A DNA stretch of 64,000 nucleotides from Candidatus Yanofskybacteria bacterium (lineage in GTDB: Bacteria; Patescibacteriota; Minisyncoccia; 2-02-FULL-40-12; IGHO2-01-FULL-4-A): positions 2,384 to 66,383 of the forward strand of contig CAIUCV010000005.1 in the NCBI GenBank assembly GCA_903897805.1. Reading direction: 5' to 3'. Under the pieces are notes generated by a model that had not been told where the DNA came from, did not search any database, and saw only the letters and a list, made by a program, of their open reading frames with translations. This document shows positions 48,468-54,227 of the stretch, in pieces (the first letter of the stretch is position 1; each line of letters begins with the position of its first letter). The translations under genes were made by a program, and so were the position numbers.

Positions 48468-49562
48468 TTACTTTCGCTCTTCCAGTACCGTCTTTACCCT
48501 CATCGTTTTGTCTTTTCTCATTACCGTCATTTCCAGTTCATCGCCGACCTTTGCCGTCTGTATTATATCCGCGAGTTCGTTTTTTTCGGTTAGCTTGTCG
48601 CCGTTTATTTCAAGCACAATGTCATTTTCCTTTATGCCTGCCTTGTCGGCGGGGGAATCAGCAACAACGGCTTCCGTTCCGGGGATATGGTCCTTTATGA
48701 CCAGCGCGCCGAAATCCACGGGCAGAGCATATTTTTCTTTCAACTCTTTATTCAACATCACATATCTCAAGCCGATAAACGGCCTGACGATGCGACCAAA
48801 TTTGATTATATCTTCAAGGTCCGCTTTGGCCCAGTTAATAGGCAAGGAAAATCCGATATTTTGCGCGCCAAAGATTATAGCGGTATTAATACCGATAACT
48901 TCGCCGTCAAGATTAATCAGTGGTCCGCCGGAATTTCCCTGATTGATGGCTACGTCCGTCTGAATGACGTTTCGCAGGTTTTCTACCTGCCCGCCTTGTC
49001 CCATTGATGCCGAGATTTTGCGGCCGAGGCCGGAAATTATTCCCTTGGATACCGTGTTGGTGAAAAGACCGAGCGCGTTGCCGATGGCAACAACCGTTTG
49101 CCCCAGTTCTATTTTGTTGGAATTGCCAAGCTGTACGGCCGGCAGGCCCCGGGCATCAATTTTCAGGACCGCAACATCGTTCATGGGGTCGCGGGAAATA
49201 ACTTTTCCCGCGTATTCTTTTTCGTCGCTGGTAACGACAGTATATTCAGCTTCGGTATCAAAAACTACATGCTTGTTGGTTAAAACCAAACCGTCGGGAT
49301 GAACGATAAAACCGGAGCCGCCTCCGACTTTTACTTTTTCTCCCTTGGATTTTCCCAAATGCTTGTCAGGGAGCATTTCGCCAGGTCCCGCCTGCCGGTC
49401 GGGCAGGTCTTCCGGTAGGGGCATGCCGAATCCGAACGGCCCAAAAAACGGGGGGAAGGGCATCTGCCTGATTTTGGGCATAAACTTGGAAATGGCAATG
49501 CTAACCACCGCCGGGCCGACCTTTTTTACTGCTTCTATTGTTTGTTTTTCAATGTCTATCAT
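48468..49562 (-). CDS. htrA: HtrA/DegP-family serine protease with C-terminal PDZ domain
   Basis: Trypsin-like GNSGGPL; PDZ ...IKENDIVLEINGDKL. Confidence 0.8.
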   Translation of the reverse strand: MIDIEKQTIEAVKKVGPAVVSIAISKFMPKIRQMPFPPFFGPFGFGMPLPEDLPDRQAGPGEMLPDKHLGKSKGEKVKVGGGSGFIVHPDGLVLTNKHVVFDTEAEYTVVTSDEKEYAGKVISRDPMNDVAVLKIDARGLPAVQLGNSNKIELGQTVVAIGNALGLFTNTVSKGIISGLGRKISASMGQGGQVENLRNVIQTDVAINQGNSGGPLINLDGEVIGINTAIIFGAQNIGFSLPINWAKADLEDIIKFGRIVRPFIGLRYVMLNKELKEKYALPVDFGALVIKDHIPGTEAVVADSPADKAGIKENDIVLEINGDKLTEKNELADIIQTAKVGDELEMTVMRKDKTMRVKTVLEERK

Positions 49563-50576: not shown

Positions 50577-51863
50577 ATGCGCAATGAAGTAAAAGTCGGC
50601 AAGTTAAATAACGGTTTAAAATTTTATTCCCAATATGATTGGTCTGGCGGCACGCATCTAGCCGGGATAGGTGTTAAAGTTGGCTCACTGCACACCCCAC
50701 CAGGTTGCGTTGGGCTCCCGCATCTAGTTGAGCATCTGCTTGCCAGAGAGTCGCTTAAGTACGCGCCGCTTCAAGCAGAAATGATTTTTGAAAAGCACTT
50801 AGGCGATCCCGACGAGGATATAAATATAAGAATTGACAGAGCAAGCACTTTTTATGGCTTTGGCGATCTGCTTAAAAAAGAAGGCATGCTGGCGTGTTTT
50901 GATGTAATGGCCAATTTTTTGCGCGACAAGATCGTAACCGCCGAAGGCATAGATGTTGAAAAAGCCGCGGTCCATAATGAATATTACTTGCGTGGCGTTG
51001 ATTCAATGTGGAGTTTAATTGATGACTTAATGCACGGACTGATATATGAACGCAATCCGGCAAGACTCAGGATTGATTGCGAGGTTGATGACCTAAAGGG
51101 AATTAAAAGGAGTCAAATTGCCAGTTTTATTAGGAAACACTATGTCCCAGAAAATATGTTTCTGATTATGCTCGGTCCCAGATTTGAAGAGGTCAGAGAA
51201 TTTGCCAAGCAATACTTTGATGATTTGAAAAATAAACCAAGGCCAGTGCTGGATTATGACCATTCTGATAATTTGCCCGTACTCGCATCGATTAGGTCAA
51301 ATGAGGTTGAAAGAGCGAGTATCGGTCAGTTTCACTTTGCGCTTGGTTTCCCCACAGAGAGTTATATGAGCAAAGACGCTGAAGCACTCGATGTTTTAGC
51401 TAGGATCCTGGCCTTCAGGTTGAGACAGCGGCTCAGAGAAGGGAATCGTATATTTGACCAGGGCGTCTACCGGGCCAATGTATACACTTCAAGATCGTTT
51501 TTGCATGGTTTGATATATGCAATCTTTGCTACGGTCAGCGGGGAATTTGCCCAAAAAGGCGAGGGGATAGTTCTAGAACAGATTCAAAAACTTAAAGAAG
51601 AACTGGTGGGCGATGAGGAACTCGATGCTATGGTTAGCTATATTGACAATTCGTATCAGGATGCATTTAAAAAGATTGCCCTAACCTTGTCGGAAATGAT
51701 CATTGAAGCAGTATGCAATGGCGACGATGAGGACGGCAAAGAATTGGTTCATCTCCATTCTTTCAGGCAGAGATTACATAAAGTGACGCGCCGAAAATTG
51801 CGCGCCGTCGCTAATAAATACTTTACCCCGAATTATGCTCGCGTCCTGATAAGACCCGTCTAA
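50577..51863 (+). CDS. M16 family zinc peptidase (insulinase-like)
   Basis: Inverted zinc motif HLVEHLL (HxxEH) in GLPHLVEHLLARES; 428 aa. Confidence 0.7.
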   Translation: MRNEVKVGKLNNGLKFYSQYDWSGGTHLAGIGVKVGSLHTPPGCVGLPHLVEHLLARESLKYAPLQAEMIFEKHLGDPDEDINIRIDRASTFYGFGDLLKKEGMLACFDVMANFLRDKIVTAEGIDVEKAAVHNEYYLRGVDSMWSLIDDLMHGLIYERNPARLRIDCEVDDLKGIKRSQIASFIRKHYVPENMFLIMLGPRFEEVREFAKQYFDDLKNKPRPVLDYDHSDNLPVLASIRSNEVERASIGQFHFALGFPTESYMSKDAEALDVLARILAFRLRQRLREGNRIFDQGVYRANVYTSRSFLHGLIYAIFATVSGEFAQKGEGIVLEQIQKLKEELVGDEELDAMVSYIDNSYQDAFKKIALTLSEMIIEAVCNGDDEDGKELVHLHSFRQRLHKVTRRKLRAVANKYFTPNYARVLIRPV

Positions 51864-51970
51864 GCCCAACCCGCAATTGCGGGTTTTTATTTGCTTGGAG
51901 GGTCTATGGACTTTTTTGATGAGATGCCCTATGGTGTCGATATTAGGACTTTGAAAATTAGGGGGGCAAA

Positions 51971-52774
51971 ATGGCGTTTGCTTCAGAGTTCTTTGCTTCA
52001 GAATTTCCGATTATGCATCAGGAAAAAGTAGGGGCCATCATTGAGCGTTTGAAGATTGGGCAATCTTCCCCGCAGCCGGCAGGGAGAAAGAGCAACACTA
52101 CCGTTTTCGCGTTTACGTATGATAACGGGGTGGTTTTAGCCGGCGATCGGAGAATGACAGATGGCTATTATGAGATTGCTTCTGACAACACTATTAAAGT
52201 TAAACAATTGTCCAAATTCTCGGCTATAGCTTGCGCTGGCTCCTGCAATATTATCAGATACTTAGAAGACAACATGGAAGCCGTTTGCGCTATTTTCAAG
52301 GAACGGTATCAAAGGGAATTGTCGCCGGATGGACAAGCCAACCACCTTCGAAATTTAATGGAGGGGTGGTGGTATTTCTACGTTTTTTACTGGTATTGGT
52401 CTATAGGTGTGCCCGTACTGGCTACCTATGATTTGGAAATGGGGCAACCGCGCATATTTTCTTTTGCCGAAGATGGTTTCTATTTTGAACCGTCGTTTCT
52501 TGCCGGAACCGGTTGCGGATTTGAAACGGTCAGGGGACTGATAGTTGATCGTTGGCGGGAAGACCTTGATGCTGACTTGGCGATAACTCTTGCCGTCAGA
52601 GCAATGATCCACTCAGGAGTCGCAAGCCATGGCGTTAGTGATGCCCGAATCGTACCGCCGAAAGTCGCTCTTATTGATAAGGAAGGATTTAGATGGGTAC
52701 CTGAGCGACTAATTATAAAGAAGAGGGACGACTTATTAAAAGAAATAAGGGGGATACGATGCCTGTTGTGCTAA
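51971..52774 (+). CDS. prcB: 20S proteasome beta-subunit-like Ntn hydrolase with ~52-aa propeptide
   Basis: After the propeptide: TTVFAFTYDNGVVLAGDRRMT (Thr1, Asp17), Lys ~33 (IKVKQL), GTG loop (AGTGCGFE). Aligns by eye to actinobacterial PrcB. Confidence 0.65.
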   Translation: MAFASEFFASEFPIMHQEKVGAIIERLKIGQSSPQPAGRKSNTTVFAFTYDNGVVLAGDRRMTDGYYEIASDNTIKVKQLSKFSAIACAGSCNIIRYLEDNMEAVCAIFKERYQRELSPDGQANHLRNLMEGWWYFYVFYWYWSIGVPVLATYDLEMGQPRIFSFAEDGFYFEPSFLAGTGCGFETVRGLIVDRWREDLDADLAITLAVRAMIHSGVASHGVSDARIVPPKVALIDKEGFRWVPERLIIKKRDDLLKEIRGIRCLLC

Positions 52775-53448
52775 GACTTGAACCGTCTCCGGAAGCAAAA
52801 AAAGAAGCCATTAATTCCTTGCTTTCAGACAGAACAGGGCTGATCATCAGAGGCAAGAATTGTGTAGTAGTTGCTATCAAGTCGCCGGTTATAGTTAATG
52901 TTCTTAAACATCCTGGTGAAGGCCTTGAGCATTCTAGCCAAAGTACAAAATTGTTCATTTGGGGGCTTGGCGGTTCTGTTGCCGCGAGAAGAGGTTTTGG
53001 AATAGAGTTTGGCCGATTTGAGAACGAATTGAGAAACAGATTTTCCCATAGAGACCTGAATTTTGTAATGCTTAACGATTTCATCAGTGGTTACCTCCGA
53101 AAGGACCTTTATAGCCGCAAGTCCGATGAGCCCTTGGCGCTGGAATTCATTTTGGCTGAGATTACCTTGAGTAGTATGACCTTTTCCATCATCAATTTTG
53201 ACGGGGATTCAAGATTTTTCAAGGAAAGCAGCTTTACTGTTATCGGATGCACTGGCGACAAGGAAAAAAAGGAATTGACAGAATCTCTCAATAGCTTGAA
53301 TTTGGGCAATCTTTCGGCAAAAGAAATTAGTGAATTAGTTCAGCCACTGCTGGAGAAATTCAAGGGCGACTTCTTTTTGATATCTTTTTCCTTGAAGAGC
53401 AGGAAGGCCCCAAAACAAAAAAATAAACCGCGAGCAAGACGCCAATAG
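52759..53448 (+). CDS. prcA: 20S proteasome alpha-subunit-like protein, translationally coupled to the beta-like gene
   Basis: RBS AAGGGGGA; 16-nt overlap with the upstream gene. EPSPEA...GKNCVVVAIKSPV...GSVAARRGFGIEFGRFENELRNRF parallels the PrcA layout. No N-terminal Thr, so likely non-catalytic. Confidence 0.5.
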   Translation: MPVVLRLEPSPEAKKEAINSLLSDRTGLIIRGKNCVVVAIKSPVIVNVLKHPGEGLEHSSQSTKLFIWGLGGSVAARRGFGIEFGRFENELRNRFSHRDLNFVMLNDFISGYLRKDLYSRKSDEPLALEFILAEITLSSMTFSIINFDGDSRFFKESSFTVIGCTGDKEKKELTESLNSLNLGNLSAKEISELVQPLLEKFKGDFFLISFSLKSRKAPKQKNKPRARRQ

Positions 53449-53536
53449 CGTCTTTTTTATTTCGGATAAATTGCATTATTTATCTCCGCGCGTTAATATG
53501 AGCGCGAATCCAGTTCTTTAAAAAAGGAGGTTTCGC

Positions 53537-54184
53537 ATGAAAGCCAGACCGAATAGTACATCAAAACCCGCTAATTTAAAGCAGGTATTAAATTGGACTC
53601 CGACCGATTGGCAATATCAGAAATTCTTGGACCGGGGGATCGTTTTTATACAAGGCGTGACCGATGGAGCAATGTCATCTGAATTTAGTTACGAAATGAT
53701 GCATCTCACGAAAATCGAACCGCCCATGGAAGGCGGTACCAAAAAGCCGATTTGGATAATCCTGGATTCGTGTGGCGGCAGTGTTGTTGCGGGCCTAGCC
53801 ATATATGACACGATAAAAGCCACGGTGGCTTCCGGTGCCGAAGTGAATATTATTGGCAAAGGCATAGTAGCGTCTATGGCCTCTGTCATTATTCAGGCCG
53901 GGTCAAAAAGACTTGCCTTGCCGCATACCCAATTCCTTGTGCATGAAATTAGCCAGTCGATTTTCGAGGAGGAAGAAAAAGTCAGCGAGGGCGAAGAGCG
54001 GATTCAGGAAGTCAAGAGAATCAACCGTATCATCATGAATATTATTGCCGAAAGAGCGGGCATAGATGTTGATGAACTCATTAAACTTTCAAAGAAAAAA
54101 GATTGTTGGTTTGATGCTTTAGGCGCGCGCAAGTTAGGCACAAATGGCCTGATTGACGAAATCATTACCACTTTTCCTTTTTAA
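53537..54184 (+). CDS. clpP: ClpP-family serine protease (N-terminally extended)
   Basis: ILDSCGGSVVAGLAIYDTI...GIVASMASVI (Ser), LVHEIS (His), DCWFDALGA...GLIDEI (Asp). Confidence 0.7.
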   Translation: MKARPNSTSKPANLKQVLNWTPTDWQYQKFLDRGIVFIQGVTDGAMSSEFSYEMMHLTKIEPPMEGGTKKPIWIILDSCGGSVVAGLAIYDTIKATVASGAEVNIIGKGIVASMASVIIQAGSKRLALPHTQFLVHEISQSIFEEEEKVSEGEERIQEVKRINRIIMNIIAERAGIDVDELIKLSKKKDCWFDALGARKLGTNGLIDEIITTFPF

Positions 54185-54199
54185 GTAACTCGTTTAAAC

Positions 54200-54227
54200 A
54201 ACTCGCGATTAAGCGAGTTTTTGTTTT
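54200..54227 (+). terminator. Rho-independent terminator (AACTCGC-gattaa-GCGAGTT + T-run)
   Basis: Seen directly. Confidence 0.65.

Follow-up and report, generated by a model that had tools for sequence, protein, structure and literature searches.

A conserved pair of diverged, proteasome-like beta and alpha genes in a subclade of Patescibacteria

The 20S proteasomes of bacteria are, according to the textbooks, restricted to Actinobacteria, and their core is functionally tied to pupylation; sporadic cases from Nitrospirae, Armatimonadetes and Verrucomicrobia are usually put down to horizontal transfer (PMC5666114, PMC7947786). The 64-kb stretch of Patescibacteria DNA analysed here (hereafter the window) contains two overlapping genes that an initial annotation read as a coupled proteasome beta/alpha pair. 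Do these genes encode a bacterial-type 20S core, are they native to their host, and how would substrates reach such a particle? No description of a beta/alpha pair from Patescibacteria was found in the searchable literature. We regard it as likely that the two genes encode a bacterial-type 20S core with one catalytic (beta) and one non-catalytic (alpha) subunit, native to a subclade of this phylum.

All four reading frames concerned (M16 peptidase, beta, alpha-like and ClpP-like) were recovered where the initial annotation had placed them. The product of the forward-strand frame 51971..52774 (267 aa) is identified, from profiles, alignments and an AF2 model with a pLDDT of 85, as a 20S-type, PrcB-like Ntn hydrolase and predicted threonine protease. 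It matches PF00227 of Pfam at 86.5 bits, and its top NCBIfam model is 20S_bact_beta (TIGR03690, 76.7 bits), which scores above arc_protsome_B (63 bits); both lie far above the HslV models, which reach only about 12-14 bits (E 0.025 and 0.095). In a profile search of the PDB, PrcB of Mycobacterium tuberculosis (Mtb) is the best match (71.7 bits), in an alignment that runs the full length and takes in the C-terminal extension, and archaeal subunits rank beneath actinobacterial ones. Similarly, the leading Foldseek matches are the beta subunits of Rhodococcus and Mtb (E 3e-18, TM 0.73-0.87), the top 33 are all actinobacterial beta subunits, and the model fits PrcB with a superposition of about 2.6 Å. 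Actinobacterial PrcB also outscores DPANN beta for 10 of 11 betas from CPR bacteria. The initial view that this protein is nearer to PrcB than to HslV is therefore sustained by profiles and structures alike. An assignment to HslV was rejected on the low HslV scores, a 42-residue propeptide and the presence of an alpha partner (an HslU-like gene is absent from the window), and one to Anbu or BPH on the same propeptide and partner and on the top 50 Foldseek matches, which include no HslV, Anbu or BPH structure.

The second frame (52759..53448, forward strand, 229 aa) is a "hypothetical protein" in both public records that name it, and it has no match in Pfam or NCBIfam, including TIGR03691. Its model nevertheless shows the N-terminal helix H0 that is specific to alpha subunits (residues 11-22) and an Ntn sandwich, the fold on which its initial reading as a non-catalytic alpha subunit depended, together with the two helix pairs through which rings make contact. 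PrcA of M. tuberculosis ranks first in Foldseek, the family profile matches only alpha subunits in the PDB, and the same profile retrieves a canonical, TIGR03691-positive bacterial alpha from 1.84 billion proteins (E 1.8e-6). True alpha subunits are its nearest relatives by four methods, at an identity to PrcA of about 13%, and an hhalign comparison with its own beta yields a probability of only 0.3-6%. Sequence and model identify the protein as a highly diverged PrcA homolog that lacks the catalytic residues. The family comprises about 70-80 clusters at 50% identity. An FSxRD motif is conserved at residues 95-99 and the C-terminal tail is rich in Lys and Arg; the "SPE" motif, cited initially as a mark of alpha subunits, is indeed kept in the closest relatives, but is conserved only there. 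The column of the activator-docking lysine (LRKISE in PrcA) holds S, Q, E or N in this family, in a region of uncertain alignment. Taken together, the beta, at 22-26% identity to actinobacterial PrcB and 76.7 bits against an equivalog cut-off of 191.9 (TIGR03690), and the alpha-like protein, without a match to the corresponding model (TIGR03691), are classed as a diverged variant and not as equivalogs.

Direct reading of the sequence bears out the reported 16-nt overlap and strong ribosome-binding site. The overlap spans 52759-52774, from the alpha ATG at 52759 to the beta TAA at 52772-52774. Shine-Dalgarno sequences lie 4 nt upstream of both start codons on the forward strand, AGGGGGG (51960..51966) before beta and AGGGGGA (52748..52754), within the end of beta, before alpha; the internal one and the overlap indicate that the two genes are translationally coupled. 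Relatives likewise have overlapping or abutting beta/alpha starts. By contrast, the single operon with the flanking proteases that had been implied is not what the transcription signals suggest. Terminator-like hairpins followed by T-runs lie on the forward strand after the M16 stop codon (51868..51885), parting M16 from beta-alpha, and at the alpha stop codon (53436..53454), ending the bicistronic unit, and because they bracket the pair, the M16 and ClpP-like genes are probably transcribed separately. With the overlap, the internal Shine-Dalgarno sequence and these flanking sites, prcB and prcA appear as neighbours in one operon of their own.

Strict co-inheritance and translational coupling suggest that the two products assemble stoichiometrically. 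Alternatively, the beta alone could assemble, as HslV and BPH do, into an active homo-oligomeric double ring, with the alpha-like protein as an accessory (chaperone, adaptor or regulator) and without stacked outer rings. This would fit the weak similarity of the alpha-like protein to PrcA (about 13%), its lack of a Pfam match, its hhalign probability of 0.3-6%, the apparently unconserved docking lysine and the unusual basic tail, and diverged proteasome homologs may take other quaternary structures (Fuchs et al., PMC8665760). Yet the protein keeps the full alpha architecture, with H0 and both ring-contact helix pairs; true alpha subunits are its closest relatives, the pair is coupled and strictly co-inherited, and propeptide-bearing betas of PrcB type are known only from alpha/beta particles (for the distribution of propeptides see PMC8665760). 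We therefore hold a beta-only particle to be unlikely, and retain the alpha/beta core as the preferred reading.

The beta has the residues that define a proteasome, the Thr1/Asp17/Lys33 triad and the oxyanion Gly47 (PMC8665760), at T43, D59, K76 (after a one-residue insertion) and G90. Together with G181 and G183, these are invariant in alignments over CPR, actinobacterial and archaeal betas, and the triad named in the initial annotation accordingly stands. Its propeptide is shorter than the roughly 52 residues first proposed: in the alignment to Mtb PrcB, N42 lies opposite Gly-1 and T43 opposite Thr1, which gives 42 residues (codons at 51971..52096, forward strand) with model helices at 2-11 and 17-28. 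Cleavage is inferred between N42 and T43; Asn at position -1 also occurs in PrcB of the actinobacterial Poriferisodalaceae. Other parts are less canonical. Gly128-Ser129-Gly130 is replaced by G181-C182-G183, with Cys at the Ser129 position in most family members, and an SGxxSHGVSD motif stands in place of the Asp166/Ser169 region, so that the fine-tuning of catalysis may differ from the canonical one. The end of helix H2 is rich in aromatic residues (WWYFYVFYWYW, 133-143), and the C-terminal helix H5 spans residues 245-259.

These substitutions and the aromatic H2/pore-loop region could also mean that the pair is a proteasome-derived enzyme of other chemistry or role, for instance a protease with a specific processing function or a transpeptidase resembling connectase, which is a ligase of the proteasome superfamily (PMC7980362, PMC8665760). 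We consider this quite improbable: Thr1, Asp17, Lys33 and Gly47 are intact, the model superposes on PrcB and shows neither a connectase-type insertion nor a loss of H1/H2, the canonical G-S-G is retained in the betas of two related loci (L013 and L021), and the presence of an alpha subunit speaks for a compartmentalised protease.

Is the pair native to its host? In all 12 Patescibacteria lineages in which it was found, the beta gene is directly followed by the alpha-like gene, and the pair is strictly co-inherited across this deep family. The surrounding gene order (SmpB, HtrA, oligopeptidase, beta, alpha, ArgRS, IleRS) is conserved as well; RecO belongs to the shared synteny, and IleRS carries a lineage-specific insert. 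The records of the related loci bear Patescibacteria titles. Beta has a GC content of 46.0% and the alpha-like gene one of 42.2%, not about 47% for both as first estimated, in a window of 45.9%, and the GC and GC3 of the pair agree with those of neighbouring genes. The conserved pair and neighbourhood in 12 lineages show it to be native, neither mis-binned nor recently imported, and the native origin proposed initially stands on shared synteny as well as on composition. The pair is native to a Parcubacteria/Yanofskybacteria-like subclade of Patescibacteria, within which its inheritance looks vertical. Although the closest characterised relatives are actinobacterial and CPR bacteria co-occur with proteasome-carrying DPANN archaea (L017, L018), a recent acquisition from an actinobacterial or archaeal source, or an error of assembly or binning, has a negligible likelihood and is effectively refuted by the low identities to PrcB and PrcA, by one housekeeping synteny (SmpB, HtrA, ArgRS, IleRS, RecO) shared by 12 lineages between which beta identity has fallen to about 30%, by the composition, and by the independent assembly of the window locus in at least four samples.

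The initial annotation had remarked that no Pup, Dop/PafA or Mpa gene was visible nearby, and this extends beyond the window. With Mpa, Dop, PafA and Pup candidates of an actinobacterial locus (L014) as queries, phmmer searches of all ORFs of the window and of 13 related loci (L001-L013; 6-10 kb around the gene) found no homolog of any of the four; the lone match was a ComM-like AAA+ protein. The only AAA+ protein of the window is likewise ComM/Mg-chelatase-like, and no window ORF of at least 150 aa ends in a C-terminal Hb-Y-X motif. Since Pup-system genes are absent from every locus seen and the docking lysine does not appear to be conserved, targeting is probably Pup-independent.

Several other peptidases lie close to the pair. 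The two flanks named initially are both confirmed by Pfam: upstream, on the forward strand, an M16 (pitrilysin-type) zinc peptidase (50577..51863; PF00675 and PF05193, with the HxxEH motif as HLVEH), and downstream a divergent ClpP-like serine protease of 215 aa (53537..54184, forward strand; PF00574 at 95.3 bits), whose best NCBIfam score of 94 bits is far under the cut-offs and whose presumed transcript ends at a terminator-like site at 54200-54219. An HtrA/DegP-type serine protease with a PDZ domain is encoded further upstream on the reverse strand (48468..49562) and is conserved in four related loci (L001, L006, L020, L021). In relatives the position of M16 is taken by an M16, M17 or S9 oligopeptidase. 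The ClpP-like gene is missing at the corresponding position in most relatives; L009 and L012 do have ClpP-like neighbours, but these come from another family and score about 41 bits against the window protein. In the window, terminator-like sites part these neighbours from the beta-alpha pair. Conserved gene order rather than function may underlie this peptidase neighbourhood.

The most likely reading of the pair is a 20S-like threonine protease that works independently of Pup. Judging from fold, coupling and co-inheritance, the two proteins would co-assemble into an alpha-beta-beta-alpha barrel; the propeptide would be removed autocatalytically at N42|T43 upon assembly, and the particle would degrade unfolded or loosely folded proteins to oligopeptides. 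More tentatively, targeting might be ATP-independent or use a further partner, and the recurrence of oligopeptide-specific neighbours suggests that products may be trimmed to amino acids by the M16, M17 leucyl aminopeptidase or S9 oligopeptidase, which would be useful for organisms with little amino-acid biosynthesis. The fuller picture, of an ancient, vertically inherited, Pup-independent proteasome whose alpha ring has changed past recognition and no longer makes use of the HbYX/GQYL pocket, which works with no unfoldase or with a novel partner and perhaps opens a salvage route from protein to amino acids with the neighbouring oligopeptidases, is possible but doubtful as a whole.

What is new here is a beta/alpha pair conserved in ultra-small, genome-reduced bacteria, with no Pup machinery seen locally. 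It adds a phylum-level data point on the origin of bacterial proteasomes, and should the lineage prove to branch off outside the actinobacterial clade, these would be older and more widely inherited than the picture of "Actinobacteria plus horizontal transfer" allows. The retention of a proteasome core under strong genome reduction implies an important role. The pair may moreover serve structural and biochemical work as a proteasome that is minimal by nature and possibly free of regulators, and it exposes an annotation gap, in that the 70-80 or so clusters of alpha subunits had gone unrecognised.

Among known systems, HslV, Anbu, BPH and the 22 proteasome homologs of Fuchs, Alva & Lupas (2021) are single-subunit enzymes without an alpha partner and, HslV excepted, lack propeptides (PMC8665760); they share with the present beta the Ntn-hydrolase superfamily and the catalytic triad. 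The models have none of the long insertions that define PHI and PMI-3, which lie after H1/H2 or between H3/H4. The alpha/beta architecture and catalytic residues are those of archaeal PsmA/PsmB too, but the beta scores higher on the bacterial type, and the docking lysine for the HbYX of PAN/Cdc48 does not appear to be conserved. In archaea the psmA and psmB genes are as a rule unlinked, and the propeptides are short. As a bacterial alpha/beta pair outside Actinobacteria, the present one resembles, by published descriptions, the "Gram-negative" proteasomes of Nitrospirae, Armatimonadetes and Verrucomicrobia (De Mot 2007, as cited in PMC5666114), whose alpha and beta are only residually similar and make up a diverged subcluster that radiates from the actinobacterial one (PMC5666114). 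Pupylation genes are also reported in those lineages (PMC7947786, PMC3511204), whose proteasomes are read as horizontal transfer from Actinobacteria, whereas no Pup system lies near the pair here and its inheritance looks vertical.

The closest resemblance is to the actinobacterial core. As in PrcB of Mtb and Rhodococcus erythropolis, the beta has Thr1/Asp17/Lys33/Gly47 behind a long propeptide and is extended by a C-terminal helix; as in PrcA, the alpha has an N-terminal H0 and no active site; and in actinobacterial prcBA (L014) prcB likewise precedes prcA, with stop and start overlapping. Unlike in that core, identities are low (22-26% for beta, about 13% for alpha), both subunits fail the NCBIfam equivalog cut-offs, Ser129 is Cys, the Asp166 region is rewritten and the end of beta H2 is aromatic-rich, while the alpha has a basic C-terminal tail and, under an uncertain alignment, an unconserved docking lysine. 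Moreover, the actinobacterial loci L014-L016 have all of pup, dop, pafA and mpa beside prcBA, whereas none adjoins the pair here, and the host belongs to the Patescibacteria and has a reduced genome. For both subunits, actinobacterial PrcB and PrcA nevertheless remain the best structural and profile matches.

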